Positions 30,805 to 51,575 of a stretch of DNA of 64,000 bases are shown here, piece by piece. The notes below the pieces were generated by a model that saw only the letters and a program-made list of their open reading frames with translations, was not told where the DNA came from and ran no database searches. Origin of the DNA: Nitrospira japonica (GTDB lineage: Bacteria; Nitrospirota; Thermodesulfovibrionia; Thermodesulfovibrionales; SM23-35); assembly GCA_020725385.1 (NCBI GenBank), contig DYFC01000054.1:58555-122554 (forward strand), read 5' to 3'. Numbering within the stretch: the stretch's first letter is position 1; each line of letters begins with the position of its first letter. A program made the translations under genes and the position numbers.

Positions 30805-33030
30805 TTAACCTTTAACACCCCAGAAGTGTTCTTTATAATCCTCTGCCAATCCTGGATATGCTTCTGTTTGTGCTTCTGTAACTCCTGGCATCATCCTTGC
30901 CAACGCTGCATAAATCTTGATAATCCTAATATGTTCGTTATTTAATTGAATAAATCTCGGACAGATAAATATAGTTGCGGGCAATAACCATCTGCAAAAT
31001 CTATTGCCGGCACATGCAGCGTCAGAGTCAGGCACACAAAATATATTTAATTGGTGTTCGAAATTATCGCCCATCTGTCTGTATCTGTCATAAATACCAG
31101 CCATTGCTGCACGGTCTCCTCTCCCGAACCATCTGAAAAAATATGGCCTCATATGATTTTCATTATTTGTATTTCCATATGTCTGTCCGATGCCAAAAAT
31201 AGCATATGTGTTCCATCTCTCAGCCCAAGCAACTGCCTTTCTTACCTTTTCTTCATTAGGTCCCATACCGGCTGTGACGCTGGGATCGCATCCTGCTACT
31301 ACATCCTCGACAGTAGGTCCTATATGGGATGGGTGCTGGTTTTGGATTAACTCAAAGACAAAACGAGTGAGACTTTGAGCATTATCAATTGCCTGATCAC
31401 GTGTAAGAAAAACGAATACTCTTTCACGTTCGTATGCACGATCATGAACTTCATATCTTGAGCCATGAGCTGATTCATGTACAATAACTTCTTCTTTGCC
31501 ACTACCAGTGAAAAAAACTGGGCATACTATTAAGTTTTCTGGATTCGCAGCAGCCCAGCCACCTGCACGACAAGTTGGATCTTCATCATCAGCGCATTTA
31601 AGGATTGTTGTTAGTAAATTCGGCTGAGTTAAAAAATCACTCATAGCTTGAAGTCTATTTCTAACTTCTAGTGCAGTTGCAGCACTATGATCATTTGCAA
31701 AATTGTTGTCCAATGCTATCCTCACATTATTTTGTGGGTCAGTCTGCATAGATGGATTTCCTCTGTATGTATCTAATCGATGAACTGCATCATTTAGCAT
31801 TGGCACAACCCTATCACGTACTTGGCGTACTATATCCTGTCTTGTCTGATCACAAGGTTGTATATGAGAACCTGTTGAACCTGTTCTGTTTGAAGCTTGG
31901 CTGTCAGGCTTCATTTCTACAGAACGCCAGAAGCGGTAATCAATCTGTCCAGAACTTTTATGTAATAGAGGCACATGATATATGATTCCATCATATCCTT
32001 CATCTATAATAAGGTTGGCAACAGCCTCTATGCGTTTCTCAGCCAAGAGATGGTTATATGTACGGTTACCTTCTTCGGAAGCATAACCATATAAGTTTAT
32101 ATCCTGTACCCCGCTTGAAGCCATTCTGCGTGAAAATCTTCTGGCTTTTTCTGCTTCAATAGGATCTAAATCATTTTCAGGGGAAGAATTATAAAGTCCT
32201 GGTTTATCAAAATCAAAAAAAACATCATCAGGATAATTATCGCGATTTTCATATAATCCTGTAACTCTAAAGGATTCTGGAGTAGTCCTTTGTAATATAT
32301 TACTATTACTCGAATCTTGCTGCATCACATGAGTTAGTTCATGCGCCAGAAGATATTTTCCCGAGGCTGTGTATGGTTGATATTGCCCTGTGCCAAATAC
32401 AATATCATTTCCAACAGTAAATGCAAGAGCACTTACCGAATCCGCAAGAGAGGATGCTTTTGCATCAGTATGTATTCTTACATTGGTGAAATTATGATTA
32501 AAACGAGGTTCAAAGTATTTGCGTATTTGTGTCGACAAAGGATTGCCTCCACCTCTTATTTCATTAATGCGGCATTCTACATCAGTGGAAATTTCAGGGT
32601 TATCATCAGAATATGCTTTTAATAATGAATTTGTTATTAAGGGTTTTAATTTAATTTCTTCTTCATCCCCGCACGAGAGACCTTTTGCAAAAGGTCAAGT
32701 CGGTTTCATCTGGATTCCGGGCTCCGGCATCCGCATAACCATATCGGCCACCCTGTCTGCCTCTTGTTCATAAATATCATAGGATCGGCTAATTTTGAGT
32801 TTTGTATGTATCCCTAGCCTTATGCCCTGTCCCCTGAACCCCATACCCTGAACCCTATACCCTGTACCCCTTAAGATCTTTCCCGCTGCCTGATTACCAA
32901 TTGTCTTATGTAAAAATAAGATTTGGTCAACAGGCGAATTTATAGTCTTAGAGAATTCAGTCTTTCGTGTTTGAGAAATTGAGTTCTCTTTCTTTGATTC
33001 AAGTTCTTTTATTTTAGTTTTCTCATTCAT
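30805..33030 (-). CDS. Putative eCIS cargo DUF4157-OmpA-M35 peptidase, with one in-frame TGA at 32695-32697
   Basis: Track ORFs 32695..33030 and 30805..32538 share a frame, and the 52 codons between them contain no stop. DUF4157 (FEPRF..VRIHTD..ALAFTVG..LLAHELTHVMQQ), OmpA-like region (VFFDFDK, GYASEEG..YN..LAEKR), HESAH peptidase, then a degenerate second peptidase repeat. Confidence 0.8.
32812..32867. repeat. Eight-unit degenerate heptamer tandem repeat inside a coding region
   Basis: ccctagc cttatgc cctgtcc cctgaac cccatac cctgaac cctatac cctgtac; encodes GTGYRVQGMGFRGQGIRLG. Confidence 0.75.
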
Positions 33031-34639: not shown

Positions 34640-36697
34640 TTATGTTAATTTCGTATCTATTCCTAATCTTGCTTTTATTTTTACCTGTCCAGCATCTTCT
34701 GTATCCTTAAGTATTGTATCTCTGCCAATAACAGAACTTTCCCCTAATATAAAAATAGGTTCATTGAGCAAAGTATTCATTCCAAGATATGTATGCATAT
34801 CAAGATAAAACCATTGCTCAAGCACTTTAAGCCCATAACATGTATGCGCAGGTTTATGTTCATCTATTATTTTTTTAATTGTTTCTGTCTTTTGATTTTT
34901 CAACGCCTGTGATGGAAGAAGAACGAAAAAGCAAAATCTTTCTTTTCCGAATAATGCTTCTTTTAGAGAAATATTTTCACCATCAATTGTTTTGACTTTT
35001 GATTTATCAGAAGGTAAATAAATTGAATTCTCTTCATGTAAGGAATCCCATTTGTCAGCGCACTTTGTGCTGTAAGAGGAATCAATATTTATATTTTCAA
35101 ATATAAAAGGTTTATACCCTGTAAAAAGCTCTAATATTTCTTCGAGCCCTTTTCTCGTGCCTCTCATTTTATAAAAATGAATAGCTTTCTTTATAAAAGC
35201 TCTTGTTTTTTCTTCAGACCAATTTGCATCAGTACAAATAGAAAGCCATGTGCCAAGCCATGAAAGAAATTCAGATGGAGTGCCTTCTGCATCAAAAAAG
35301 CGTGTTAAATGTTTTATCTCAAAATCTACTTCATATATCAAACTATCAAAGATAGACAGAAAACGCTCTAAAAAATCTTTTGCTTTTGGATTCTCCTGAT
35401 AATTGGCAGGAAGGTAATCAAGTAAAGTTAAACGCGGGAAAAACAAAGTAAGCATTTTAATAATAGGAGTTAACTTTTCGTCTCCAAATAACACAAGCTT
35501 AAACCAAAGGTATCTGCCATTAATATTTTTTAGAAAAAGTGCATCTCTTTTATTTTCTTCTTGAATACCTGATTTCTCGCTAAGGCATTTGTTCCATCTA
35601 TTTTCTGGCATTGAAATAATTTCATTATCGGGCATTAAAGAATCTGACGTAAAATATGAAAATTCAAGCTGAGTTCCTTTTACAAATTCACCGTCTATAA
35701 GGAACCTATGCCATCTAATGTTGTCTTCATTACTATCAATTGCCTTTGAAATGAAAACTCCTTTAAAATGTTCTTCCTTATCTTTTGTATTTACGATTGA
35801 ATATTCCAGAAATGCAATTGACTTTCCCTTGCTATCTATAATATAAAGGTTTCCTCTTGAATCATTTATCAATCTTCTTGTAGCATCTCTATAAGACCAA
35901 ATTGGGATTGTGCTACCATCATGCATTACTTTATAAATGGTTTTCTTGGAATCAAATGTATCTGGTTCACCAGCAAATATTTGGGCTTCTCTACTGACTG
36001 ATATGCCTTTTAGATGTAATGTAGTATTTATGACTTCTGATAAGGTATTCTCTTTAAAAAGAAAGATCTTAGAACCATCAAGTATATAAATAACCCCTTT
36101 TTCATCTACTGTAATATCTGTTGGTTCGGATAAAGTGTTGTCTTTAATAAAACCTGCAATTTCACCTGACCTTCTGATTATTATTGCCTGTTTATTGCCT
36201 TTATCAAGAGCATAAAGATTGTTAAGGTCAATAACAAGGTCGGTAATTTCTGTAAAATGATTACCTTTATCATCTGAATCACATATCCAGCGAATTTGCA
36301 GGTTTGAACGGGCAAGGGCAATTATTCGGGATTTGTTTTGTATTTTATTGAAACCAGAAATATAAATCGTGTCTTTATCGATAGCAATTCCCGTAGGAGA
36401 ATAAAGTTTTAATGGCAATAATCCATTTTTGCAACCTGCTTCATTTATTTCTCCATAAAGTCTATTATACGTGAGTATCTTATCTCTGCTTCTATCAATA
36501 ATCCAGAGGGTATCACATTCATCGATAGCAATATCTGTTATATCAAACGATGAGTCTTTTATTATGAATTCTTTAAAAATATAAATCCCTGCATTATTAA
36601 GCCTGATTCCATTTTGAAAACTCAGGTTTTCAGAAAAAAGATGAAAGTTATGGTATAAATCATAGGAACTTAGCCGGATATAATTAATATGATTCAT
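34640..36697 (-). CDS. Phage tail protein I (P2 gpI-like) with N-terminal NHL/beta-propeller region
   Basis: SPTGIAID and EPTDITVDEKG repeats; LDYLPANYQE..FLERFLSIF...FLSWLGTWL...YKMRGT..GL...KPAHT. Confidence 0.85.
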   Translation of the reverse strand: MNHINYIRLSSYDLYHNFHLFSENLSFQNGIRLNNAGIYIFKEFIIKDSSFDITDIAIDECDTLWIIDRSRDKILTYNRLYGEINEAGCKNGLLPLKLYSPTGIAIDKDTIYISGFNKIQNKSRIIALARSNLQIRWICDSDDKGNHFTEITDLVIDLNNLYALDKGNKQAIIIRRSGEIAGFIKDNTLSEPTDITVDEKGVIYILDGSKIFLFKENTLSEVINTTLHLKGISVSREAQIFAGEPDTFDSKKTIYKVMHDGSTIPIWSYRDATRRLINDSRGNLYIIDSKGKSIAFLEYSIVNTKDKEEHFKGVFISKAIDSNEDNIRWHRFLIDGEFVKGTQLEFSYFTSDSLMPDNEIISMPENRWNKCLSEKSGIQEENKRDALFLKNINGRYLWFKLVLFGDEKLTPIIKMLTLFFPRLTLLDYLPANYQENPKAKDFLERFLSIFDSLIYEVDFEIKHLTRFFDAEGTPSEFLSWLGTWLSICTDANWSEEKTRAFIKKAIHFYKMRGTRKGLEEILELFTGYKPFIFENINIDSSYSTKCADKWDSLHEENSIYLPSDKSKVKTIDGENISLKEALFGKERFCFFVLLPSQALKNQKTETIKKIIDEHKPAHTCYGLKVLEQWFYLDMHTYLGMNTLLNEPIFILGESSVIGRDTILKDTEDAGQVKIKARLGIDTKLT

Positions 36698-36698
36698 C

Positions 36699-38618
36699 TT
36701 AGCCTTTCTTTTTACACAGAACCTGCTCAATTATTATTGAGACTGAGTGTTTGCCCGAATAAATAGTATGCAAAGGAGATGGCAGGATAAGATTGCCTTC
36801 ATTGTCAGAATTACTTTGATCTCCATAAATATGCAGTTTTGTAATACATCTTATCCCGTTAATCTTCTCGATTTCCTCGTATATTTCAGAGCGATAAACA
36901 TTTCTTCCAATTGGCCAACCTTTATGGTCATTACCACCAAATACTGGATGAAGAAATTTATTTAATGCCATTATTACAGAATTTTTTACATCTTCTATTT
37001 GATATGATTCTGATACAGAAATCTCAATATCTACTGTTACTTTCACATATTCAGGTCCTATAATATAAATTGCTGTTCCAAGCAGACGATGCTCATTTAG
37101 ATGCCTACATATAGCATCTCTGAATCCGTCTGAAGGTTGAGGGGGTTTCTCAAAATATTCAAGAGGAGTAAAGGGAATAACTATAACTGTTACAGAACCT
37201 CTAAGACGGCCTTTTTCAGGATGATAGTTTGGAAGTGCTTTTGCTTTTGCAACTCTTAAACCCGGTGTATTAATAGCAATATATTCAAAATCTGAAGAAG
37301 TAACAGCTACAAACGGTATGCGAAGTTCTTTAATAAATCTTGCATTTGCATCATCAATAGTTTCATTATCTGCACCACCTGTGGCAGAAACAAAATTAGT
37401 AATCTTCAGTTTTTTTGAATCTTCTTCTTTTAATTTCCACGAATATCCTTCCTTTAAATTGCCTTCTTTACCATTACATATCCTGTATCTTTCAACCCTT
37501 ATGTTTGAACCTGATAATGGTACTTTGCCGTTAAATCCATCTCCAAAAATTATTTCGCCTTCTTTGCTATTTAGAACAAAGTGATTATCCTGTGGGCATG
37601 AGCCATCAAAATCAATTCGCTCTACTGCATAGCTATTATCAATGGACACTAAGAGTGATTTATTTAGAACAGGCTTGAATTTAAGAGAATATTTCTGGTT
37701 GGGCAAACCATTGCTTGTCCACTCTTCTTTTTCTGTAATCGTCTCTCCCTGAATAGCTGAACATGTATTCAACCTGATTTTCTCGATTCTCGGTGGATAT
37801 TCAAATAGAGATTCAACAACAACACATCTGAGCCAGTAATAATTTTCTTCTGAAGCATAAATTTTTGAGGGCAACCAATCATTCAAATCTTTAAAATCAA
37901 TTCTTCCACTTTTTTTAAAATTTTTTGTATCATCTTTTGTGGGTTTTATAGATTTCCATCCACTTCCTGTAAAATATTCCCACTGAAGTACTGAATTTTT
38001 AAAATCATATTCAGGTTCTTCACCATGCTGACCGGGCTTCATAAGGTCTTTTTCATATAGATAACATGTAAAATTTATCGTATCCGAAGGTCTATCAAAA
38101 CCAAGATATAGGGCGCAATTTTTTTGTATATTTAATCCAAATGGAGCAAAAAACTGATTAACTTGTTCATTCATTTTTGTCCTATCATATATGCCCCCGG
38201 TCATTTCATCTACAATAATTTCTACAAGTCTTGCGTTTGTAACTTTTATATCTTCTTTTAATTCAAAACTAATTTTTTCCCCGGATATAGTTGTATAAAC
38301 CTTTTCTCCTTTTTTTAATAAAACTGTTTCTTCAGACTCAAATGTAAGATCAACTACAGAGGGTTTGATAGGCACAGGATATATATCAAGCAATTTAAGA
38401 TATTTAAGTTTATGTCTTTCACTGATATAATTGATGCGATATAAATATGTTTCTGTAATCCAGGAAAAAAGCTCTAATAATGTTATGCCAGGGTCACTCA
38501 GATTATGGTCTGTCCATTCAGGAGCAAAACCAGGTATAAGTTTAATAGCTTCATCAATTAGTTGCGCAAAATTCCTGTCATCAAGATTTGGTTTAGGCAG
38601 CTCTTTTTTAATCAGCAA
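36699..38618 (-). CDS. Baseplate J-like wedge protein
   Basis: LDDRNF...PEWTDHNLSDPGITLLELF, FGDG..GKVP, ATGGADNET, AVTSSDFE, GWPIGR. Confidence 0.92.
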   Translation of the reverse strand: MLIKKELPKPNLDDRNFAQLIDEAIKLIPGFAPEWTDHNLSDPGITLLELFSWITETYLYRINYISERHKLKYLKLLDIYPVPIKPSVVDLTFESEETVLLKKGEKVYTTISGEKISFELKEDIKVTNARLVEIIVDEMTGGIYDRTKMNEQVNQFFAPFGLNIQKNCALYLGFDRPSDTINFTCYLYEKDLMKPGQHGEEPEYDFKNSVLQWEYFTGSGWKSIKPTKDDTKNFKKSGRIDFKDLNDWLPSKIYASEENYYWLRCVVVESLFEYPPRIEKIRLNTCSAIQGETITEKEEWTSNGLPNQKYSLKFKPVLNKSLLVSIDNSYAVERIDFDGSCPQDNHFVLNSKEGEIIFGDGFNGKVPLSGSNIRVERYRICNGKEGNLKEGYSWKLKEEDSKKLKITNFVSATGGADNETIDDANARFIKELRIPFVAVTSSDFEYIAINTPGLRVAKAKALPNYHPEKGRLRGSVTVIVIPFTPLEYFEKPPQPSDGFRDAICRHLNEHRLLGTAIYIIGPEYVKVTVDIEISVSESYQIEDVKNSVIMALNKFLHPVFGGNDHKGWPIGRNVYRSEIYEEIEKINGIRCITKLHIYGDQSNSDNEGNLILPSPLHTIYSGKHSVSIIIEQVLCKKKG

Positions 38619-41600
38619 CTTTTACTCCTTACTTTTATTTTGTGTTCTCCGCCATAAATTAATGCGTAATCTGGGATTTTTACATTTATGTTTAAATCAG
38701 TAATATCCACAATTTTTATGCCTTTTTCCGAATAAAGAGTCATTGTTAAAGTCTTTATATAATCCACATCCTTAATCTTTCCAAGCATAGCATATAAGTC
38801 AGAAAGGCATGGTATCTCGCCAAACTGCCAGCCTTTAAATTCAAAACCCCCTTTAAGTGGATGAAAGAAATCAGAAATTATCTTTCTTGCATCATTTTCT
38901 ATTTCTGCTGCATCTTCTATATTTTTTGAATATATCTCGATATATGTGTCGGCCTTTATATATAAAGGAGGTATAACTCTTACTGAAGCTACATTTGAAG
39001 AACGCTCAAGCAAATACTCCTTTACTTTTTTACAAAGACTCGGTGTGGGGAAAGGTTTATTTTCAGTGCTAAAAGGAAGTATAACTACCGTGACCCAACC
39101 GGTCTCATATTCATTCTTATCGTTTAAGTTTGGCAGGATTTTAACTTTTGCAATATCCCTTGAAGATTCTTTCACAATATAAATAAAGTCATCTAATGCT
39201 GTTGCTCTTCCTCTGTTTTTTAATATATTAGGAGCACGCTTTAACAAAGAATCTACATCTTCACTATCTGTGCCACCTTCGGCAGCTATCGGATTAAAGA
39301 CCTTATCTATTGATGCTACAGAACTCTGTAATTTATTTATCTCTCCTGATTTTAGATTCCCCTTTTCTCCTCCACCTGTTCTATAATTTACTTTAATATT
39401 ATCTTTCCCTGATGGAGGAAGCATCCCATGAACTTCATCACCAAACCATATAATTCCTGTTAGCCTATCTATAACATAGTGGCGGTCTTTGCTTCCTGAG
39501 CCTGTAAAATCAATTACTTCTTTCCATTCAACCCAAAATTCGATAATCTTTCCTTTAATATCTTTCTTTTCTTCAATAGTGACACCTGATTTGCGTAACG
39601 TATTCATTTCACTTTCTGAATGAATATTGATTTCATTAACCATTATAGAGATGTCTATGACAGGTGAATTCATAACCTTAAAAAGCTGTAAAGCTACATC
39701 ACTGCCAGAACCAATTATTTCATCTTTAATAGTTTGAACCTGTGATGCCCATACTGAATTTAGATAAAAACCCTTAATAGTAGGAAGCATCTCAGTTTCA
39801 TAAAAATCACCTGTTATCGAAGCTTTAAGCCAGAACTTTTCGTTTTCTCCGAAAAAACTGGCTGGTTTCATTTCTTCGTCTATAGAAAAAAAGAGAATAC
39901 CTTTTTTTGTAAATCCTTTGGTCTCATCCTTTATATCAAGTTCTTTCCAGCCCTGTGGCTCTGAATAGTAACTCCACCTGACATCTGGTAGAAAATCTTC
40001 AGGATATTCAAATTTTTCATCAATGTCTATGAAAATACTCAATGGTCCTTTTTTCAATTTTTTATCAAAACTGAAATATACTGAAGGATATAAATCAAAC
40101 AGAGGCTTAAAAGGGGTAAAAGATTCTTTTATACTCTTTTGTTCACAATTATTCTCAACTATTAAATAATCAGGACTATTTTCTTCATCATTAAAATATT
40201 CAAGTTTTATAGAATGAATTTGAGGTGGGTTAAATTCACTGGGTATAATTTCTTTTGAATTGCTTATCTTAAATTCACAACCATAATCACCTTCAACAAG
40301 ACGTACTCTTATCCAGTAATTTTCTTTGCCATTTATTTTTACCTTCTGTATTTTGGGTAAATTCAATATTGAAATAAGGCACTCTTGAGCTTTTGTCTCA
40401 ATATTAACAATAGTTGAATAAAATGCTCCCGGTGATGAAGCCATATTTTCATTTATACCTTCAATTAATCCCCATGTTTCACCATCCCAGTATTCCCATG
40501 AAAGCTTTGGAATATTTTTAACAGAAGAAGGGATACCACGAATTAATTTTAAAAGAATATTTACTTTATATCCTTTTTTAGAAAATGCTTCTTCGCTTGC
40601 CATATAAAAAGTTGAATAAAGTCTTGGTTTTATTCCAAAAGGATATATTTTCCCTGATAAATCAACAGGAACATCATTACAAAATGCCATATCAGGAGTA
40701 ATTCCAGCTTCTTCTATAATTTTTAGTTCTCCCTTTTTGTCATAAAATTCCTTTTTTGCAGCTTCAAGAATATTTTCTGCTCTATATTTTCCACAACCAA
40801 GCAATTCTGAAACCTCTTCCGAAGAGTATCTTAATAATTTAGTTATAGTGTCAATTTTAATTGCGGCTTTTTCCCCTGCGAGTTTTTCATAAAATTCATC
40901 GCCGATACCATGTATCTTTTTAATATCAATAGATGTCTGATATGCGTTAAATGATCTAATGCCTATTTCTCCAATTTTTATTTTGCTAAACAGATTTATG
41001 TTTAAATTTTTATTAATACATCTAATCCATCTGCTTTTAATTTCAAAAAGATTAATTTCTGAGATCTCCTCATCCGAATCTTTATGAAGCAATATATTTC
41101 CGGATGTCTTATCAATTTCTGTTTTGTCAAACTCCTTCCATAAAATATGCTTTTCCTCTTTTTCATCTTTTTTCTCGATTCTTTCAATGCCATATTGCCA
41201 AGAAACATTATCATCAGAAAGAAGTTTTAATATTTTTATAGAAGTATTTTTAAAATTGATTATTAATGTTGCTTTCTTAATGTTAAAAACATTGATGGAG
41301 CCAATATAAAGAATATGCTTTTGAAGATTTAAACCATTAAATAGTTTAGAAGATTTAACTCCATTTATCGAGATAGCATGATTGAATATTTCGTCAGAAT
41401 TCCTATTGGCACTAAACACATTTAACAGTTTAGACGGAGTGGCAAGGATTGAAGTTTCTGTCTCAAAATATATGGGTTTCCCATTTTTATCCTGCGCAGA
41501 AGCCTGCGTTCCTGAAGGAATTAGTATATTATCAATTGTGCCCTGACTTAACAAAAATGTTAGAGGCGTCCTGCTTGGTTTTGGAGGCAAAAGAGATACA

Positions 41601-41815
41601 CCAAATGTCTCAAGAAAAGCTATAGAATGTCTGTAAGGAGCGAGATTTAAACGATTTGCAATAATTTCGTAGAGGTGCATAAAAATCTTTGATAGAGCAG
41701 TGCCAAATTCACCTTCAATTCCATATGTCCATTCTGGAGTATAATATGGTATTTTACCTGTGATTTCTTTGAGAATAATTTCTTTGTCTTTCTTAACTAT
41801 ATCAGGAATATTCAT
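38612..41815 (-). CDS. Large baseplate J-like protein with an inserted helix-hairpin-helix domain
   Basis: YYTPEW, RLNLAP, FGDEVHGMLPP, YRTGGG..GN, AEGGTDSE, RGRATALDDF, GWQFG. Confidence 0.9.
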   Translation of the reverse strand: MNIPDIVKKDKEIILKEITGKIPYYTPEWTYGIEGEFGTALSKIFMHLYEIIANRLNLAPYRHSIAFLETFGVSLLPPKPSRTPLTFLLSQGTIDNILIPSGTQASAQDKNGKPIYFETETSILATPSKLLNVFSANRNSDEIFNHAISINGVKSSKLFNGLNLQKHILYIGSINVFNIKKATLIINFKNTSIKILKLLSDDNVSWQYGIERIEKKDEKEEKHILWKEFDKTEIDKTSGNILLHKDSDEEISEINLFEIKSRWIRCINKNLNINLFSKIKIGEIGIRSFNAYQTSIDIKKIHGIGDEFYEKLAGEKAAIKIDTITKLLRYSSEEVSELLGCGKYRAENILEAAKKEFYDKKGELKIIEEAGITPDMAFCNDVPVDLSGKIYPFGIKPRLYSTFYMASEEAFSKKGYKVNILLKLIRGIPSSVKNIPKLSWEYWDGETWGLIEGINENMASSPGAFYSTIVNIETKAQECLISILNLPKIQKVKINGKENYWIRVRLVEGDYGCEFKISNSKEIIPSEFNPPQIHSIKLEYFNDEENSPDYLIVENNCEQKSIKESFTPFKPLFDLYPSVYFSFDKKLKKGPLSIFIDIDEKFEYPEDFLPDVRWSYYSEPQGWKELDIKDETKGFTKKGILFFSIDEEMKPASFFGENEKFWLKASITGDFYETEMLPTIKGFYLNSVWASQVQTIKDEIIGSGSDVALQLFKVMNSPVIDISIMVNEINIHSESEMNTLRKSGVTIEEKKDIKGKIIEFWVEWKEVIDFTGSGSKDRHYVIDRLTGIIWFGDEVHGMLPPSGKDNIKVNYRTGGGEKGNLKSGEINKLQSSVASIDKVFNPIAAEGGTDSEDVDSLLKRAPNILKNRGRATALDDFIYIVKESSRDIAKVKILPNLNDKNEYETGWVTVVILPFSTENKPFPTPSLCKKVKEYLLERSSNVASVRVIPPLYIKADTYIEIYSKNIEDAAEIENDARKIISDFFHPLKGGFEFKGWQFGEIPCLSDLYAMLGKIKDVDYIKTLTMTLYSEKGIKIVDITDLNINVKIPDYALIYGGEHKIKVRSKSC

Positions 41816-41817
41816 AT

Positions 41818-42210
41818 CTATTTTTCTTTCAAATAAAATGGATAAACAAGATTAAACCTGTTGTTAGTATTTCTTATTCTATAATCTATATTTATAAGAA
41901 GCTTTCCATTACTAATTTCTTTTGTGTCAATATTAATTGACATTAATTCAATTCGGGGTTCCCATGTAATAAGAGCTTCCCTTACAGTTTTTTCTATTAA
42001 TGTAATAGTAGCGGTATTAACAGAAGCAAAGACAAAATCATGGATTCCGCAACCAAAGTCAGGACGCATGACCCTTTCACCTTTTGAAGTGCTGAGAATT
42101 ATTAAAATTGCTTCTTTTATATCTTCTTCATAAGAAGACTCAGCAATCTTGCCTTCATATGTCACTTGTATAGGAAATTTCCATCCTCTGCCAAGAAAAT
42201 TCTTATCCAT
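41818..42210 (-). CDS. gpW/gp25-family baseplate protein
   Basis: FLGRGWKFP, ILSTSKGERVMRPDFGCG, WEPRI, NLVYPFY. Confidence 0.95.
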   Translation of the reverse strand: MDKNFLGRGWKFPIQVTYEGKIAESSYEEDIKEAILIILSTSKGERVMRPDFGCGIHDFVFASVNTATITLIEKTVREALITWEPRIELMSINIDTKEISNGKLLINIDYRIRNTNNRFNLVYPFYLKEK

Positions 42211-42212
42211 AT

Positions 42213-42506
42213 TTATCCTATTAACACTGTTGTACAACCAATTGAAATAGTATTTGGAGGCCCTGTTTCAATGATTGTATCTCCCTGGCGCACTGCCGGA
42301 AAATTATTAATTAATACTGTCAAACTCCCTATAGCAACTACACCACCTGCATGAGGAACTGTGCCTGATACTAAAGGACATGTATGAAAATCAATTCCAG
42401 CACGCCATGCAGGCATTCCACCAATTAAAACATTTGCGCTCCCTGGCCCTGGACCAAGTGGAGTGCCATGACTTGTCATATCGCCTACTCTTGCCGCTAA
42501 CGACAT
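42213..42506 (-). CDS. PAAR spike-tip protein
   Basis: AARVGD..HG, VLIGGMPAWR, HTCP..PH, VLINNFPAVRQGD. Confidence 0.93.
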   Translation of the reverse strand: MSLAARVGDMTSHGTPLGPGPGSANVLIGGMPAWRAGIDFHTCPLVSGTVPHAGGVVAIGSLTVLINNFPAVRQGDTIIETGPPNTISIGCTTVLIG

Positions 42507-42535
42507 ATAATCCTCCGAGTTTTCAGGGTAAGCTG

Positions 42536-43192
42536 CTAATTTATCTTCACTAGCGCTCCTTGTATTGTTAGTGTTGCTCCTGCTTTTATAGTCATCATGG
42601 AATCTGATGAAATTTCTATAATGTTTGCTTTGATCTTCAATTGCATTCTACATTCAATATTTATAGAATTCTGAACAGAATCTATAGTCATCTTATTACT
42701 GCCTGTTTTATCAACTATTTCTATTTTTTCCTGACCTGATGAATCATCTAAAAGAATTTTATGTCCTGCTTTAGTGTGTATCTCTATCTTTTCTTGAGAA
42801 GATGAATCATTATCATTAAATATAATTTCATGTCCACTCCGTGATTTTATTTTCCTTATATTATTCCCACCATCTTGATTTGATTCAGGAGGCTGAGCTG
42901 TATTATTCCAGAGCGAACCAATAACATATGGATGATTTATATCACCATGTTCAAATGCAATTAGGACTTCATCACCTGTTTCTGGAAGAAAGAAAGTCCC
43001 GCGATTACTTCCTGACATTAAAGTTGCAACACGTATCCAATCTGTTTCATTATTGTCTGAAAGCCACGGGAACCTCACTTTTACCCTTCCCAATCCATCA
43101 GGGTCCTGATTATTTGTTACTATACCCGGTGCAACACCGTACATTCTTCTTTGAGTCTCTGTGCTAATATCAAGAGCATCCAGTAGGCTCAT
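42536..43192 (-). CDS. Baseplate assembly protein V / gp5-like spike (C-terminal half of VgrG)
   Basis: VTNNQDPDGLGRVKVRFPWL, WIRV, FLPETGDEVLIAFEHGD..PYVIGSLW, SRSGH. Confidence 0.93.
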   Translation of the reverse strand: MSLLDALDISTETQRRMYGVAPGIVTNNQDPDGLGRVKVRFPWLSDNNETDWIRVATLMSGSNRGTFFLPETGDEVLIAFEHGDINHPYVIGSLWNNTAQPPESNQDGGNNIRKIKSRSGHEIIFNDNDSSSQEKIEIHTKAGHKILLDDSSGQEKIEIVDKTGSNKMTIDSVQNSINIECRMQLKIKANIIEISSDSMMTIKAGATLTIQGALVKIN

Positions 43193-44280
43193 AACGAACT
43201 CCTCCTGACTGAAAATCTGGTTCTGTAACCATTTGAACTAATAGTATGAACTGTTCCTTTTACATAGTATTTGCCGCTAAATCTTTCACCGAGTTTATCA
43301 AGCTTGATTGTAACTCCCGGCTTTATCTGAGGGATGCCAATACATTCACCCTCTCCTTCTATTAGAGAATTGCTTGCTCTATTTAATTCTGCCACTGCGA
43401 TTGAATTAGCATGTTCCTGAGAAGTTACAGGTATGTTCGTTATAACTCTCCGTATCGTACCAATTCTCTCTTCAGCTATCTGGCTTCCTGTCCGTGTACC
43501 TGGTTCATGTGTTCTTTCATTTCCTGAAGAAGCACGTCCGACAAAAGGACTTGAAGGATCAGCAGGATTATGGCCTCTAACTTCTACCTCAGTTACAAGA
43601 CCTGATGTTTTTAATGTTGGACGAAAACTGATAATATCTTTCCCAAGAGACAATGTAAGTATTTCTGTTGAGTTGTCTCTTGGATTAATAAAATATAGTG
43701 TCTGTCTCTGGACATTAAATTCATAATTAATCTCCTGTGTAAGTCTTAGAAGAAATGAGTAGTATGTCTCGGTACTATTCTTTCTTATAAAGTTTATAGT
43801 TATAGATGAATCATCAGCAACGCAAGACAACTGTGCTTCGTTTGCAATTGTCCTTGCAATATCACTATATTTTTGTCTTATGAATGTTCTTTCAGGAGAA
43901 GACCTCTTAATAAAATCATAAGACATATCCTGACCGCTTACAGTAATCTCTGGAAGTTCACCGGTAAAATAACCTGGTTCAATTGAAGTAATTTTCCCTG
44001 TGATCATTTGTTCGAGATTCCCGCTATATCCAGCCTTAATTATTATTTTGTTGCCTACATTTAATAATTCATGGTCAAGCCATTTAAATTTTTGTGTTTT
44101 CATGTCAAAGCCATCATGCAATGTCATTCTGAAGCTTGCACCTTCATCAAGTTTTTCTTCTATACTTACATCAAGAATAGATTTAGACATATCTGCATAA
44201 AGTTTTTGATTCTCTATCTCAATCTCAAAATAAGGAGCATAGAAATTTGAAGCTGTAAGAGATAATAGTTCTAATGCCAT
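43189..44280 (-). CDS. Phage late control D / gp27-like hub (N-terminal half of VgrG)
   Basis: VTEVEVRG, GEGECIGIPQIKPG, LGERFSGKYYV..VH...GYRTRF. Confidence 0.9.
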   Translation of the reverse strand: MALELLSLTASNFYAPYFEIEIENQKLYADMSKSILDVSIEEKLDEGASFRMTLHDGFDMKTQKFKWLDHELLNVGNKIIIKAGYSGNLEQMITGKITSIEPGYFTGELPEITVSGQDMSYDFIKRSSPERTFIRQKYSDIARTIANEAQLSCVADDSSITINFIRKNSTETYYSFLLRLTQEINYEFNVQRQTLYFINPRDNSTEILTLSLGKDIISFRPTLKTSGLVTEVEVRGHNPADPSSPFVGRASSGNERTHEPGTRTGSQIAEERIGTIRRVITNIPVTSQEHANSIAVAELNRASNSLIEGEGECIGIPQIKPGVTIKLDKLGERFSGKYYVKGTVHTISSNGYRTRFSVRRSSL

Positions 44281-44283
44281 AAA

Positions 44284-44952
44284 TTATTCCTTTGCTGGAA
44301 TTATAATTTCCTGTCCCGGTGATAATACCATCGGATTTTCAATTTCATTTGCATATGCAATTAATCTCCAATCTGCAGGATTACCATATTCCTTTGCAGC
44401 GATTAACCAGATGCTATCACCGCTTTTAACAATATATTTTTTAGTAATATCAGAAGAATGAAGATCAATTTCCCTAACCTGAACATCTACTTCACGGTAT
44501 TCTTTCAAAGTTACATTGAGCGTAGCTCTAACAGGAATTCCTTCCGGAAGAAACATTGTAAACCTCTTTGATACGCGTTCGATAATGCATTGGAAAATAA
44601 ATGCTCCCCATACAAAGAGACAGATAGGAGGAGCGTGCAGATCCGAGTCAATATCCATAAGTCCTTTAGTTATCCCCGGAAGATTGCTGAACATGCTGCC
44701 AGCATCCCAGCCAGTAATTCGATCTGTAAAAATTCTCACATCAATACCTTCTTCATAAGTATCAAAGAAAAGATCAAGGGTTACTGTACGTGCATTTCCT
44801 CTTACAAATTGAAAAACAGGAGAAGCAAGTCCCGGAATGTTTACTTCAGCAAATTGATTGCTTTTTTCAACACTCAATTCTTTCGGATTGAAAAGGAATG
44901 GGACTACAAGCAGTGGATTATCTTTTCTAGTAAGAAAAGCTTTTACCAACAT
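44284..44952 (-). CDS. CIS tube initiator with LysM domain (Afp7-like)
   Basis: FNPKEL, QFVRGN..TLDLFFD, HAPP.CLFVWG, G.PVRA; C-terminal LysM (YIVKSGDSIW.IA..YG..WRLIA.AN). Confidence 0.92.
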   Translation of the reverse strand: MLVKAFLTRKDNPLLVVPFLFNPKELSVEKSNQFAEVNIPGLASPVFQFVRGNARTVTLDLFFDTYEEGIDVRIFTDRITGWDAGSMFSNLPGITKGLMDIDSDLHAPPICLFVWGAFIFQCIIERVSKRFTMFLPEGIPVRATLNVTLKEYREVDVQVREIDLHSSDITKKYIVKSGDSIWLIAAKEYGNPADWRLIAYANEIENPMVLSPGQEIIIPAKE

Positions 44953-45007
44953 CTGTTATTTCCTTTATCTTGTAACTTGAGTACTTGGAAATTTGGACAC
45001 TTATGAA

Positions 45008-46084
45008 TCATGTCAGTCCTCTCCTTTCTCTTTCCAGCCTTATTCTTCTTTCAATATTTTGATAAACCTGATCAGAAATACGATTTATATCAAGATGTTG
45101 TTTTATCGCTACGCTAATATCCCTGGAAGAGTAATGATTTTTTTGTCTCATTGCCTCTTTTGTCTCAAATATAACCTTTTTGATTTCCTCAACCTCATGT
45201 TCCATCTTGCGCTGACTATGGAAATAAACATTATCAATTGTAGTCTTGTAACTGTCTATTTCCCCAAATTTTTTCCTTTCGATAGGAAATCTTCCTGTCC
45301 CCCCTTTCTCAAAGGGGAAACTATTTTTATTGTCTTTTTCTTCTTTATGAAACATGAATTTTTTGTAGGACATTTCAATTGTTTTAGGCATATAATTATG
45401 GGACATGAATTTAGTGTGAGCATCATAGTCTCTGATTCCTATATAGATAAAATTATTCGTTGACATGAGTCTTTGTAGTTGGTGAACAAAAGGAGATTGT
45501 AAAGTGTTAAGAAAAATTCCTCTTAGCCCTCCTTTCCCTATAAAACCATACGAGAATGTGTTTTCAAGAGTAGGGGTATAGTTTATAATTTTTTTCAAAA
45601 AAGGAATGCAGCGAGTACCCCCTTTTTGCAAATAGGGATAAGGTAGGATTTGGGAAAACTTAACTGTTACTGGGTTAAAAATAAGAAAAGGTTTATTATA
45701 TTTATTAAAGTAATCAAACTGCCAGATAACTAAGTTATCAGGTAAATAAGTATTTTGTTTATCTTGGTTACTTGAATTAATGTTTGTTGTTTGATAATTG
45801 GGGATTTTCCTTGCAAAATTTAATTGATTAAACATCCTTAAATAAAAATTAAAATTTAGCCTGAAGTGGTTGTTGATTAGTTCTGTGCGATAAATATTTG
45901 TTAGTTTACTTATAATATTTCTGTCAAATAATCTGAGGAAAACAAGTGCAGGAAATTTGCTTGAGTTTGTGAAAAGTTTATGCTTACCGGTAATTCTGTC
46001 ACAAAAATTTAAAATATAAAAACCAATATGCAATTTTAAAGTTTTATCATTTTTAAATAAGTTAATTTTTTTGTATAATTTCAT
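45008..46084 (-). CDS. eCIS-associated protein with conserved C-terminal helix and repeat-derived middle
   Basis: C-terminal DINRISDQVYQNIERRIRLERERRG, typical of the gene preceding LysM in eCIS loci; the remainder has atypical composition. Confidence 0.6.
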   Translation of the reverse strand: MKLYKKINLFKNDKTLKLHIGFYILNFCDRITGKHKLFTNSSKFPALVFLRLFDRNIISKLTNIYRTELINNHFRLNFNFYLRMFNQLNFARKIPNYQTTNINSSNQDKQNTYLPDNLVIWQFDYFNKYNKPFLIFNPVTVKFSQILPYPYLQKGGTRCIPFLKKIINYTPTLENTFSYGFIGKGGLRGIFLNTLQSPFVHQLQRLMSTNNFIYIGIRDYDAHTKFMSHNYMPKTIEMSYKKFMFHKEEKDNKNSFPFEKGGTGRFPIERKKFGEIDSYKTTIDNVYFHSQRKMEHEVEEIKKVIFETKEAMRQKNHYSSRDISVAIKQHLDINRISDQVYQNIERRIRLERERRGLT

Positions 46085-46145
46085 TTTTTTATTAATTCTT
46101 ATGTTTATTCTTAGTTTTTCTCTAATTTAGCTGGTTCAAAACCTC

Positions 46146-46360
46146 TTTTGATGCTCTTGTAAAAACTTCTGTGTCATTCCTGCGACAGCAGGAAAAAAGT
46201 TTCTTCACATATTGTTACATACAAGTCTATCCAACTTAGGATTCTTTTCCTTAATCATCTGTAACTTTTAATCCCTTTTCGACTTCTTTATTTGTTTTTC
46301 ATATTTTTCTGGATTCCCGCTTTCGCGGGAATGACATATATAATTCTTTCTACCATCAAA
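46146..46360. repeat. MITE/REP-like composite palindromic element
   Basis: Outer tttgatg...catcaaa ends. Inner inverted units are gtcattcctgcgacagcaggaa (46173) and ctggattcccgctttcgcgggaatgaca (46309-46336). Confidence 0.7.
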
Positions 46361-46411
46361 GTAACAGTTCTTCTACTTGTTCAGTAACTTTTAGGAGATG
46401 AACCTTATTAT

Positions 46412-47725
46412 TTAAGTAGTAGTTACCCGCCTTCCAAACACATTAATATCCCGACAAAGATCAGGGGTTCCGCTACCTGCTCCATAACAAGAAGCCTCAC
46501 AAGAAGCTGGCAAACCTTCACTGTATACTCCTCTTGTAAGGTGAACAATTTCATGTAAGATTGTTGACGCCAGAGGCTGACATCCCGGAGAAGAATCTGG
46601 ATGAGTAGGAAAAGACCGACTTCCAATTGTCATTATGTTCGCGGGAATAGAATAACCAGTAGCTTCAGCACAGGCACCGCCAATTACAGCCGAACGCCTG
46701 CAGCGAATATCTAATCCATGTCTAATAAGATTTCTTTGTATTCTGGAACGCCGAGATTCTTCAATACAGTCTGTATTAAAAATCTTATCCAAAGCATCCC
46801 GTGTAGCCATTTCAGCTGTTGCAAACCCAAAATCAGATGGCGAGCAACTACGCCGAACAACAACACTAACTCCTTCTGCTGTGAACCTATAATCTTCAGA
46901 TACAGACCCGCCACCATCTCCTTGTAATTGAATCCTTGTCATATTTATATTTGTGAACCCACTCTGTTGAACAACATGTGTTAACTCATGTGCTAATAGT
47001 TTCTTGCCCTGTGTTGTAGTCGGACTATATCTTCCTGCATTGAAAAATATATCCCTCCCAATAGTAAATGCTTCGGCATTCAACTCATTTGATTTCTTTG
47101 AAGCATATGAGTCTGTATGAAGTCTTACGTGGTTGAAGTCATATCCAAATCTGTTTTCCATGAATGAACGAGTATTGTCATCAAGCCTTTGGCCTGAACC
47201 CTTTTTCGACATTATCTCACCAATCTGTGCTTGCTCATTATTAATAGACGCCGAATTGCCAACCAAGTCAGAACTGCTAAGGTTTAATAGTTGGCCACTT
47301 GGCGATTTAAAAGCTTGACTCCTTTTTTCCATTTTCATTATACTAACTGATACCCTTTCTGCCTCCTCTTCAGCTTTACAACCTGGACAACTGCCACCGC
47401 AGGAACACTTACGGCTTATAGCTAATGGCTTATTGCTTATAGCTGGTTCATGATTGCCTAATGATGACTGACTTAACAGACTTGCAGTAAAATTATTCCC
47501 GTAATTTTTCTGCATAAATGACATTGCACAAGATTCTTTACCTAAAGACTTTGCCTGAGATAGAGCTAAATTCAGACCTTCAGATGATATGTGAGGACTC
47601 CTTAACCTGTGGCATATCCCGCAAGAATTACAGGAATTTGCCTCTATGTTCTTATTTAGTTTTTTGAGAGCAGTATGGTTTATTTTAGCCTTATCGTTTC
47701 TCTCTATCAGAATTCTCTCTTTCAA
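46412..47725 (-). CDS. DUF4157 (eCIS core) protein with C-terminal Cys-rich HExxH domain; putative cargo
   Basis: MQKNYGN, RKCSCGGSCPGC, MENRFGYDFNHVRLHTD..AEAFTIG..LLAHELTHVVQQ, then STILHEIVH...E..CEASC. Confidence 0.85.
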   Translation of the reverse strand: MKERILIERNDKAKINHTALKKLNKNIEANSCNSCGICHRLRSPHISSEGLNLALSQAKSLGKESCAMSFMQKNYGNNFTASLLSQSSLGNHEPAISNKPLAISRKCSCGGSCPGCKAEEEAERVSVSIMKMEKRSQAFKSPSGQLLNLSSSDLVGNSASINNEQAQIGEIMSKKGSGQRLDDNTRSFMENRFGYDFNHVRLHTDSYASKKSNELNAEAFTIGRDIFFNAGRYSPTTTQGKKLLAHELTHVVQQSGFTNINMTRIQLQGDGGGSVSEDYRFTAEGVSVVVRRSCSPSDFGFATAEMATRDALDKIFNTDCIEESRRSRIQRNLIRHGLDIRCRRSAVIGGACAEATGYSIPANIMTIGSRSFPTHPDSSPGCQPLASTILHEIVHLTRGVYSEGLPASCEASCYGAGSGTPDLCRDINVFGRRVTTT

Positions 47726-47779
47726 CTTAAAATCCTCCTTTGCTACTTGGCTACTCAGTATTTTTTAACTTCTTTTTTA

Positions 47780-47862
47780 CTCTATGCTCTCTGCTCTAAG
47801 CTCTATGCTTACAAACTTGGCATCTTGACAACTTGGTTACTCGGAGTCTTGGTTACTTATTT
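47780..47862. repeat. Intergenic 7-mer and 8-mer degenerate tandem repeats
   Basis: ctctatg ctctctg ctctaag ctctatg, then acttggca tcttgaca acttggtt actcggag tcttggtt. Confidence 0.65.
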
Positions 47863-47868
47863 CTACGG

Positions 47869-48303
47869 TTACTCTTTACTAATCCCATGATGTACAATCT
47901 CAATTGTTTCAAATGCTATTGAGCTGCTTTCAGCTTTTAAATCTGGGCCTGACCATTTCACCGGATATGCCTGAACAAAATTCCATCTCCATTTGTCATT
48001 TCCCGCAGAATCAATTAAGATGATAGAACCATTTTTCCTTTTAAATCTTCCAGAAACTACATCTTGATACCATTTCCATAATTCATCAGAATCCGTTAAT
48101 CCACGTTTCAATATTAAATGCTGATATTTTGTTCTTTTTGGAAAATAATGAACATAATCGTTAACTCCACCTTCCTCAATTGCTTCTGTTTCTGTTTCAA
48201 TCTGAAGACCTGAAACATCTGAGAAATAAGCGCTTATGATTCCATTTATTTCAATCCTAAATCTAAACGCTGTAAAGGGATATTTTTTTTCACCAACAGG
48301 CAT
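47869..48303 (-). CDS. Tail tube protein 2 (T4 gp19-like)
   Basis: FRFRIEI, SGL, EGGVN, LKRG, W.F..AYPVKWSGP.L.A...AFETIEIVH. Confidence 0.95.
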   Translation of the reverse strand: MPVGEKKYPFTAFRFRIEINGIISAYFSDVSGLQIETETEAIEEGGVNDYVHYFPKRTKYQHLILKRGLTDSDELWKWYQDVVSGRFKRKNGSIILIDSAGNDKWRWNFVQAYPVKWSGPDLKAESSSIAFETIEIVHHGISKE

Positions 48304-48308
48304 TTATT

Positions 48309-48491
48309 TTATCCTTCCAAAATACTCTTCTTTTCCTCACCACTTATCTTACTGTTTATTTTTGATATTTCCTCGCACCACCTTTGTCTTTCTCTATGTT
48401 CCATGTTCATTATATCTTCATGTTGCCAGTGAAAATGATATGCAATAAAGGCTACCTCCTCATAGATTCTATCGAGGGGGTAGCCTATCAT
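48309..48491 (-). CDS. DUF6760 / P2 gpE'-like small protein (probable -1 frameshift extension of the tail chaperone)
   Basis: YEEVAFIAYHFHW...IMNMEHRERQRW; lies in the -1 frame of the upstream gene with an ATGA overlap. Confidence 0.8.
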   Translation of the reverse strand: MIGYPLDRIYEEVAFIAYHFHWQHEDIMNMEHRERQRWCEEISKINSKISGEEKKSILEG

Positions 48492-48853
48492 TCCCCCGAC
48501 TTTTGTATTTCCACCTCAAATTGATGTTCACATTTTGGACATACTACTTTAATGCCCGAAGCTCCGTTGCTGTTGATTCTGTTATAAAGCTCCTGAAGAT
48601 AAGACAGATCTGATGTAAAGAGATTTTCAATTACCTTTGGATTAATTACATCTAATGTCCCAAGTTTCTTAATAACTCTTGATAGTACTATTATCGAAAG
48701 ATATGCTGGATTTGCTTGCACTCTTGGGTCTTTCATTGGCAGTATCTCATCTGCTGCTGTTGCAAGTCTCATTAGACCATTTTTATGGAGATTTCCTTCC
48801 TCATCAATATATCCTTTTGGAAGCATGAATTCAAATTCTGTTTGAAAAGCCAT
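48488..48853 (-). CDS. Tail assembly chaperone
   Basis: FQTEFEF.LPKGYID..G.LH..G.MRLATAADEI.P..DPRV...DL.YLQ.LY..IN...CPKC; follows the tube gene; GGAGGG RBS fits the ATG at 48853. Confidence 0.85.
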   Translation of the reverse strand: MAFQTEFEFMLPKGYIDEEGNLHKNGLMRLATAADEILPMKDPRVQANPAYLSIIVLSRVIKKLGTLDVINPKVIENLFTSDLSYLQELYNRINSNGASGIKVVCPKCEHQFEVEIQKSGE

Positions 48854-48885
48854 TAACATCCCTCCGTATATTTATATTCTTCAAA

Positions 48886-49329
48886 TTATGAAACCCTCTG
48901 TATACCCTCATGAACAATTTCAAGAGTTTCAATCGCTACATCATTACCTTTAGCGGTAAAGTCAGGAGCATCATATTTTGTAGGCCATGCCTGAATAATA
49001 TTCCACCTTGCCTTGTCACTTCCTACTTCATCAACGAGTATGATGGAAATATTTTTCCTTGCTCCATCTGCTCCTGTATCTATAACCTGCTTCCTCCAGT
49101 TGTATAAATCCATAGAATCAGTAATTCCCCATTTAAGTGTTATATTTGAGTATTTTGTTAGCCCTGAAAGTTTTCTAACAGTTGTCGGGTCAGTTCCTTC
49201 CCTATATTCAATAGGATCTGTAGTGGTATCACCAATAGTGCATTCACTGAATCCTGCTTGGGTGATACCATCAATTTCAACTCTAAATCTAAAATTTCTA
49301 TAAGGGTCTTTTCTTTGCCCAACCGCCAT
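48886..49329 (-). CDS. Major tail tube protein (T4 gp19-like)
   Basis: DPYRNFRFRVEIDG, YREG, ITLKWG, AWPTKY.APDF.A.GNDVAIETLEIVHEG. Confidence 0.96.
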   Translation of the reverse strand: MAVGQRKDPYRNFRFRVEIDGITQAGFSECTIGDTTTDPIEYREGTDPTTVRKLSGLTKYSNITLKWGITDSMDLYNWRKQVIDTGADGARKNISIILVDEVGSDKARWNIIQAWPTKYDAPDFTAKGNDVAIETLEIVHEGIQRVS

Positions 49330-49421
49330 ATATACCTCCTCTTTTAAGTAACAATACTGTTAACAATCCATTATTTATTTGCTTCATTTATGTGTTATTA
49401 CGATTCCCAATTTCCTCATTT

Positions 49422-49475
49422 TCAACCGTATAAACTGTGTAAACCTTGTAAACTATGTAAACTGTGTAAACTTAT
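49422..49475. repeat. 9-mer tandem repeat between sheath and tube genes
   Basis: tcaaccgta taaactgtg taaaccttg taaactatg taaactgtg taaacttat. Confidence 0.8.
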
Positions 49476-51506: not shown

Positions 51507-51575
51507 TTTTCCCTCCTTTTAAAATTTGTTCTAATAAATTTAATAATGTTTACATTGAGAAAGAAGAGTTATTTT

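Follow-up and report, generated by a model that had tools for sequence, protein, structure and literature searches.

Bacterial selenoprotein genes that rely on a UGA codon and a selenocysteine insertion sequence (SECIS), such as those for FdhA and SelD, share a common layout: the in-frame UGA is followed ~11–15 nt on by a short hairpin with G and U in its loop, homologues elsewhere have Cys instead, and the genes depend on selA, selB, selC and selD. The rule for SelB, drawn from work on E. coli fdhF, asks for a loop with G and U as well as a fixed spacing. A different group of genes encodes the cargo of extracellular contractile injection systems (eCIS). According to the accessible text on Cgo1 and Cgo2 of AlgoCIS (preprint 10.64898/2026.05.27.728243) and on the eCIS-associated toxins of Geller et al. 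(2021; PMC8213781), such cargo combines a disordered N-terminus, DUF4157 (eCIS_core, earlier called ‘PVC-metallopeptidase’) with its HExxH motif and a variable C-terminal toxin, and is encoded at the 3′ end of the eCIS operon. In the parts of the AlgoCIS preprint available to us, the disordered N-terminal region of DUF4157 cargo is assigned as a loading sequence that is required for loading, and DUF4157 itself is dispensable; the role of DUF4157 is given as unknown in the available text of Geller et al.

The gene analysed here lies on the minus strand of a 64,000-nt stretch of contig DYFC01000054.1 (positions 58,555–122,554; assembly GCA_020725385.1, Nitrospira japonica), which we call the window and whose 64-kb numbering is used for all coordinates. 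It has the domains and the placing of the eCIS cargo described above; unlike that cargo, its N-terminal region is broken by a putatively recoded UGA, and annotation yields two open reading frames (ORFs). We consider it very likely that the TGA is a genuine selenocysteine (Sec) codon, which together with a SECIS would place a U-x7-C motif in the loading region, itself disordered, of an eCIS toxin that also has an M35-like protease domain. Unlike in FdhA and SelD, this Sec would lie outside any recognisable redox-enzyme site, in the predicted disordered linker of an injected-toxin precursor. The proposed recoding is of the ordinary bacterial selenoprotein type and the protein is of the DUF4157 cargo family; it is the combination that appears to be new. 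The first-pass annotation, made from the letters alone, knew of no described selenoprotein among eCIS cargo, and our literature searches agree with it: in full texts, with supplementary tables (those of surveys included) and subscription journals outside the scope, none was found that ties DUF4157 or ‘contractile injection system’ to selenoproteins, and selenocysteine and ‘contractile injection’ came together in an ANME genomics paper alone, with one occurrence of each term.

The in-frame TGA in related genes and strains

From the ATG at 33030 to the TAA at 30807–30805, the frame contains a single internal stop, the TGA at codon 112 of 741 (Table 1). The 111-aa ORF (33030–32695) and the 577-aa ORF that opens at a TTG (32538–30805), both present in the ORF list, are one frame with the TGA as the sole interruption, as the first-pass annotation had noticed. 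Downstream of the TGA the gene is intact across 629 codons, and two of its Pfam domains exceed their cut-offs. The TTG is codon 165 and the Pfam eCIS_core match begins at codon 164, so that a start at the TTG would open at the first eCIS_core residues and lose everything before them; it had rightly been said to cut into the DUF4157 lead-in. Elsewhere in the window TGA is an ordinary stop and terminates 9 of the 52 long ORFs. The 111 codons ahead of the TGA include the leader motif YEQEADRVA (32772–32746) and probably correspond to the disordered loading sequence of DUF4157 cargo, whose role is that given in the available text of the AlgoCIS preprint.

Homologous DNA was taken from 160 loci found in scans of public genome and metagenome contigs, from whole-genome searches of 401 genomes of the phylum and 317 of the order, and from extra stretches that were fetched. 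In all fetched loci a script recorded any in-frame stop within 70 codons past the YEQEAD leader motif that was followed by at least 40 open codons. Across 12 genomes, 17 distinct DUF4157/eCIS_core cargo genes had a TGA at the same column: the window gene, G430_C67, G328_C11, G328_C31, G365_C33 and G390_C75; three genes in G371 (which equals G042; one of the three is L051), two in G579, and one each in G462 and G463; two in G518, a genome of the same family as the window organism; and L038 and L039, which belong to a Desulfocapsa metagenome-assembled genome (MAG; G602) and a Desulfobacterales MAG (G041), respectively. The flanks are conserved as well. The motif common to these genes is KP[TG]-U-x6-7-[PS]SCG[ED]EE, with L039 (ART-U-KAAAC) as the exception, and the window reads IQMKPT, TGA, PFAKGLSCGDEEE. 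In the order-wide search, 18 of 21 matches had one TGA, one of the 18 (G003:C314) in a different arrangement that is described below; the other three matches cover query residues 2–30 or 69–101 and stop short of the column. Among 142 leader-plus-core genes in the 160 public loci, three carry the same TGA and 91 have a linker Cys.

The TGA is also present in independently assembled contigs. Those of runs X1, X3, X5 and X6, from four studies (X1 may be the source sample), span it, with no listed difference in 32632–32754, and diverge from the window at many other positions; no RNA run was among those listed for the stretch. In X3, X5 and X6 the 24 nt directly 5′ of the TGA (32699–32722) are swapped for 126 nt. 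The net gain of 102 nt equals 34 codons, so the two sides of the TGA remain in a single frame. With the 111-aa piece as query, a 5.8-billion-protein collection gave 77 short proteins of 61–195 aa, 43 of which terminate at ...KP[T/G/A], the residue that precedes the stop column. This suggests a TGA form that is frequent in metagenomes and that gene callers routinely split. We conclude from these comparisons that the TGA at 32697–32695 is in all likelihood not a lesion and is not unique to one strain.

Several further loci were noted in these searches. Strains with the 126-nt form are 90–99% identical to the window, and the database protein P0123 (145 aa, 86% identical, ending ...IHLKPG) appears to be the form that is longer by 34 codons. 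A 132-aa ORF ending ...SIQTKPG (P0160) and an 815-aa DUF4157 protein (P0027) share a 104,423-nt Candidatus Brocadia contig, which suggests, from protein data only, that the TGA form may extend to anammox Planctomycetota. A search of 41 genomes of relatives gave almost no homologues; in G003, a gene closely homologous to that of the window was represented by its 3′ end only, at the start of the cut contig G003:C314. On the same contig (L025, 499–2141; same genus) a 92-aa leader-like ORF (...CEQEADRIADLAIRTPERRVR) has as its stop a TGA that shares bases with the ATG of the next ORF, which encodes 455 aa in another frame and has a leader-like motif of its own; no hairpin of the UCCCU-CGUGC type lies behind this TGA, and the locus could be either a cargo gene with a frameshift or a gene that truly encodes a leader only. 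The leader pattern is absent from L239 (G407), which had been picked for a TGA match inside the core domain. In four metagenome loci (L127, L129, L130 and L131) the DUF4157 frame has, from the core onward, ~20 TAA, TAG and TGA stops within 400 codons, in a nearly identical pattern; decay, a frame change or something else could account for them. The linker of L034, from a gammaproteobacterial MAG, contains a TAA and no TGA (637–639), ~13 codons ahead of CxxC...C and with the frame open afterwards, probably a lesion or an assembly error. This unrelated TAA was not counted with the family, nor was the hit in L159, a spurious match on the opposite strand.

Cysteine forms, hairpin and Sec machinery

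A protein search with residues 1–260, with X at the TGA, gave 2,529 homologues, many of which span the column, and the best 120 were aligned with MAFFT. Cys occupies the TGA column in P0102 (KPTCPFANDSSCRDEE / IQPKPTCPFANDSSCRDEE), P0112 (RSCPFAKSSSCKEKE) and P0117 (KPTCAKGSCEEEE); the Cys form reads KPTCPFANDSSC, as compared with KPT-U-PFAKGLSC in the window. Like the window gene, all three have KPT-[C/U]-PF...SC and then an acidic run. P0102 keeps the x7 spacing of the U-x7-C motif, which argues that the Cys pair is a feature of the protein and not only a side effect of the hairpin. Unlike the window gene, in which the hairpin-encoding stretch gives P-S-C-G-E, P0102 has ANDSSCRD after the first Cys; the Cys forms are known as proteins only. 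Two other homologues have Val (P0110) or Leu (P0109) at the column, and the linkers of ten stop-free genomes of the same phylum carry CxxC...CxxC or no Cys. The proposed Sec would thus stand where homologues from organisms without Sec decoding have the first member of a Cys pair. In an AlphaFold2 model of P0102, built on a 77-sequence alignment, residues 97–140 have predicted local distance difference test (pLDDT) values <50 and the core has values >93; the low-scoring stretch holds the Cys pair and lies between two N-terminal helices and the DUF4157 core.

Two inverted repeats follow the TGA in the window, and they fared differently. The perfect 18-nt palindrome GACCTTTTGCAAAAGGTC is present as first described, starting within the TGA at its G, but it is broken or absent in G328_C31, G371_b, G371_c, G579_b, G518_b and L039. 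We reject it as a conserved signal, because it is lost in several TGA genes and must melt when the UGA is in the A site; mostly, it reflects complementarity between the codons for P-F-A-K-G. The weaker stem-loop behind it, which the first-pass annotation had also drawn, exists in a register one or two nt off that drawing (32681–32665) and is the one that is conserved. Counted from the U of the UGA, the consensus is (G)UCCCU, a CGUGC loop and GGGGA(C) at nt 17/18–32/33, or 3 nt nearer (15–29) in the x6 variants. The loop includes the UGC codon of Cys120.

A criterion set on the first three examples (at least 4 bp, loop start at nt 20–26, G then U in the loop) is passed by 16 of the 17 TGA genes and by 13 of the 14 found later. 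By comparison, it is passed by 8.4% of 15,218 coding positions of the organism's own genome and by 16 of 291 (5.5%) Cys codons of homologue linkers. Taken with the shared TGA column, this goes far past what chance would give. When the TGA-bearing sequences are aligned at the TGA (alignment A2), 82.4% of cells are paired, as compared with at most 65.7% in six slid registers, and in four of the six pairs both partners vary, a result that 7 of 500 shuffles match; the covariation is modest, the shuffle figures overstate the support because of relatedness among the sequences, and L039 is 3 nt out of register in A2. Changes that preserve pairing include an outer pair that is G-C in one and C-G in the other of G328_C11 and G328_C31, UCCUU/AAGGA in G518_b, CUCAC/GUGAG in G579_b, and U-A for U-G in G579_a. 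L039 encodes a different peptide, KAAACPQVEE, yet has a 5-bp hairpin at nt 18–32 with the loop AGGUC. Within the window hairpin, in a genome of 34.7% GC, the codons CTC, TCG, TGC and GGG make up 10%, 7.1%, 37% and 11.5% of their synonymous sets, and such rare codons point to selection on the RNA. Known selenoprotein genes offer a comparison: the organism's own fdhA has a 5-bp stem with the loop GGUCU at nt 22–26, where the window hairpin has CGUGC, and selD genes of the same genus, with one TGA each, have a 7-bp hairpin at nt 14–30. We conclude that the second hairpin, and not the palindrome, is the conserved element and that it is SECIS-like.

The own assembly, 96.6% complete in 71 contigs, encodes a tRNA-Sec with the anticodon TCA, SelA (628 bits), two SelB proteins over cut-off and two FdhA proteins whose genes have one in-frame TGA each. 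Of the sel genes to be looked for in this genome, selA, selB and selC are thus present and selD, with a best match below cut-off, is missing. In the other 11 TGA-bearing genomes SelB exceeded the cut-off in all 11, and tRNA-Sec was found in 10, the exception being G365 (310 contigs); with the own genome included, the genomes that share the TGA do carry the machinery (SelB in 12/12, tRNA-Sec in 11/12). In contrast, among ten genomes of the same phylum chosen for stop-free DUF4157 genes, SelB over cut-off was found in 0/10 and tRNA-Sec in 0/10. The tRNA-Sec threshold in these comparison genomes was an E value of 1e-9 or better.

The two selB genes of the own genome differ in their surroundings. 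One is on C52, near selA. The second, also full-length (384 bits), lies ~50 nt from a 92-nt Sec-like tRNA with the Cys anticodon GCA (G000:C15:21101–23099; L002, L009), and a Sec-like tRNA also occurs at G042:C10:176600–176691 (L190). The available text of Mukai et al. (PMC5389517) describes a selC* tRNA-Cys adjacent to selB* in two deltaproteobacterial groups; the own Sec-like tRNA-Cys matches it, but here the tRNA and selB pair sits in a genome that is grouped in the same phylum as the Nitrospiraceae-labelled MAG L051. In G371, one eCIS locus (L238; G371:C6:788000–807000) holds at least three TGA-bearing DUF4157 genes, four by search matches, and tRNA-Sec (C6:789410–789503) lies ~3.7 kb from the nearest of them. 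This closeness may be a coincidence; in the own genome selC is on a separate contig.

Proposed recoding and alternative explanations

Our comparisons yield a recoding signature: both the UGA and the hairpin are conserved, there is a Cys/Sec pair, and the machinery co-occurs. Recoding of the UGA to Sec, with a U-x7-C motif as the outcome, had been proposed from the window alone; the same-column TGA in 17 genes, the Cys homologues, the co-occurrence of the machinery, and the TGA and frame kept across the 102-nt indel in independent contigs all support it. In the mechanism that we propose, the hairpin, 13–14 nt behind the UGA codon, would sit at the point where the mRNA emerges from a ribosome halted at the UGA, and would act as a bacterial SECIS that recruits SelB with Sec-tRNA(Sec) when the ribosome reaches the codon. 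We infer that SelB binds the hairpin and that full-length protein is made. The product would be one 741-residue eCIS cargo protein in four parts: a disordered N-terminal loading region, U-x7-C (Sec112 and Cys120) with an acidic stretch, DUF4157 with HExxH, and an M35-like protease domain. Given the assignment of the loading sequence in the accessible AlgoCIS text, Sec112 would sit within the loading region or at its end. A failure of Sec insertion would end translation after residue 111, and the resulting peptide would consist of the loading region only. As the N-terminal region would be broken by the recoded UGA, the cargo would be made only in cells with working Sec machinery.

Several points weigh against this reading. 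The case is a comparative one, made from sequence. No selD was found in the own assembly, where the best TIGR00476 match has 69 bits (cut-off 125), and selD is also lacking in G005 of the same genus (98% complete), the second of two such cases among 13 genomes. Loss of the own selD in assembly or binning is plausible, since in the relatives search the selD of the other 11 of these 13 genomes, itself holding one TGA, was often on contigs of 2–3 kb. The window hairpin is weak (–4.2 kcal/mol for nt 12–40, with two G-U pairs), the fold of 81 nt is no better than that of shuffles (z = –0.71), and single-sequence folding picks the palindrome. In an Rfam scan of 32560–32760 at E values up to 10 no SECIS family came up, and the snoRNA and sRNA matches that did were at chance level. 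L038 does not pass the hairpin criterion, and the limits of the covariation given above count here too. The 43 truncated ORFs are known from their protein ends alone, with the stop codon unread, and the L051/G371_a copy seems to lose its frame past the start of the DUF4157 core. Lastly, the linker with the Cys pair is disordered in the AlphaFold2 model of P0102, so no catalytic pocket explains a need for Sec.

If the TGA were instead a true stop, the gene would give two products, a 111-residue leader peptide and an effector made from TTG 32538 or by re-initiation, and the hairpin would serve in some other way, for example in pausing or mRNA stability. A GGAGG at a distance of 7 nt ahead of the TTG could in principle permit such a separate start, which would also count against recoding; gene callers do output both pieces (P0035, 577 aa; P0122, 111 aa), and in L025 of the same genus a 92-aa leader-like ORF ends at a TGA with the next ORF in another frame. 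However, the 53 codons between TGA and TTG are open and in frame, and share with stop-free homologues the acidic run and the second Cys, at the x7 spacing of P0102; the 102-nt indel of other strains keeps one frame; an effector started at the TTG would be without the N-terminal region that the accessible AlgoCIS text (10.64898/2026.05.27.728243) describes as required for loading; and the TGA form is limited to genomes with SelB (12/12, versus 0/10 of the stop-free ones). Two separate products are accordingly a highly improbable outcome. Much the same low probability attaches to read-through or recoding independent of selenium, in which a near-cognate tRNA-Trp or tRNA-Cys, or the Sec-like tRNA-Cys, would decode the UGA, with the hairpin as a stimulator, to give a leaky switch. 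The presence of the Sec-like tRNA-Cys beside the second selB and the missing selD would fit, and species of selC* tRNA-Cys with a UCA anticodon can read UGA as Cys, as the available text of PMC5389517 reports. The anticodon here is GCA and not UCA, however, and should read UGY and not UGA; a normal tRNA-Sec (TCA), selA and Sec-type FdhA genes are present; and in its size, its place and the G and U of its loop the hairpin resembles those that SelB binds.

A nonsense mutation or assembly error in a decaying gene would take only one base change from TGT or TGC, and the related copy L051 seems to be frameshifted further on. This explanation is contradicted by the recurrence of the TGA in 17 genes of 12 genomes and in contigs of four studies, by the 43 of 77 short ORFs that end at the column, and by the remaining 629 intact codons with two Pfam domains over cut-off, and we give it next to no credence. 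Recoding to Sec is the reading we prefer.

As to what Sec112 might do, we can offer guesses: a redox-sensitive selenylsulfide with Cys120, or a metal ligand. A cysteine switch, with the linker Cys or Sec docked on HExxH, was considered and is unsupported by the AlphaFold2 model of P0102, which contains no metal and in which the predicted linker has pLDDT <50. It is speculation that selenium supply sets the ratio of short peptide to full effector and so acts as a selenium-dependent gate. A more elaborate version, in which the UGA in the loading sequence is a selenium-dependent arming checkpoint that gives full toxin with selenium and a blank 111-residue peptide without it, seems to us unlikely. 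With selenium, a Sec-Cys selenylsulfide latch or a ligand to the HExxH metal would keep the toxin inert or unfolded until it is out of the reducing producer cell; without selenium, the 111-residue loading-sequence peptide would occupy the loader or the tube as a blank. If this were true, many anaerobes of at least two phyla would use the Sec machinery as a checkpoint on a toxin at the level of translation.

The proposed recoding would add a group of selenoproteins in which Sec lies beyond the classical redox-enzyme site, in a disordered targeting region of a secreted toxin. The group is recurrent, with 17 genes at the DNA level and at least 43 database clusters of short ORFs ending at the column. 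In Sec-decoding anaerobes annotation would systematically turn each such cargo gene into two entries, a small ‘hypothetical protein’ and an effector truncated at its N-terminus, so that surveys of cargo and loading signals will miss or misread TGA-bearing cargo. The optional Cys pair of the loading region would be marked as functionally important enough to be upgraded to Sec, which gives a handle on the role of this region. The hairpin of ~17 nt with its invariant codons may also serve as a compact SECIS for engineering in these lineages.

The eCIS locus and neighbouring genes

The coordinates of the gene, its parts and the surrounding features are collected in Table 1.

Table 1. Features of the cargo gene and its eCIS locus in the window (64-kb numbering)
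Feature	Position	Strand	Basis
Whole cargo gene, 741 codons and TAA, Sec proposed at codon 112	30805..33030	-	single internal TGA
N-terminal region ahead of the UGA, 111 codons, conserved leader motifs	32698..33030	-	homologue alignment
In-frame TGA, proposed selenocysteine codon, residue 112	32695..32697	-	same-column TGA in 17 genes
Perfect 18-nt palindrome GACCTTTTGCAAAAGGTC, overlaps the TGA from its G, encodes P-F-A-K-G	32679..32696	-	broken or absent in several TGA-bearing homologues
SECIS-like hairpin, GUCUCU / loop CGUGC (32675-32671) / GGGGAU, nt 17-33	32665..32681	-	alignment A2, pairing counts, rare codons
eCIS_core (DUF4157, PF13699), HExxH as AHELTH	32311..32541	-	Pfam E 1.7e-29, 102.3 bits vs cut-off 22
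Weak OmpA-like stretch (PF00691), sub-cut-off	31993..32172	-	22.4 bits vs cut-off 27.2
Aspzincin_M35-like metallopeptidase domain (PF14521), C-terminal	31360..31692	-	E 5.5e-9, 37 bits vs cut-off 30
eCIS structural genes, upstream of the cargo gene	34640..54938	-	Pfam scans
Paralogous DUF4157 gene, no stop, four-Cys motif RKCSCGGSCPGC at the equivalent place	46412..47725	-	sequence comparison

According to Pfam, the structural region upstream of the cargo gene encodes a Tail_P2_I/NHL fibre-like protein, two Baseplate_J proteins, gp25, Phage_base_V and GPD spike parts, a CIS_tube protein with LysM, two gp19 tubes, the sheath and an AAA ATPase. Its own Pfam domains and these neighbours identify the window gene as a predicted cargo or toxin gene of the DUF4157 family that lies last, at the 3′ end, in an eCIS operon, and the M35-like C-terminal domain is presumed to be the toxic part. 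From this architecture and the accessible AlgoCIS text, we infer that the cargo would be loaded into the tube and injected. The paralogue within the region does read RKCSCGGSCPGC, as first annotated.

The start of the 577-aa ORF also has a simple explanation in the sequence around it: GGTGGAGG at 32546–32556 codes for the RGGG that is conserved in the DUF4157 lead-in; it stands 7 nt ahead of TTG 32538 and probably explains why gene callers pick this codon. Directly downstream of the cargo gene, a gene at 29487–30818 starts with GTG, overlaps the end of the cargo gene by 14 nt and is without a leader; it holds a second Aspzincin_M35-like domain, which is sub-threshold (29.4 bits, cut-off 30). 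The gene at 28545–29474 encodes a GH46 chitosanase-like protein with a peptidoglycan-binding domain. The genes in 28545–30818 may be further effectors or accessory genes.

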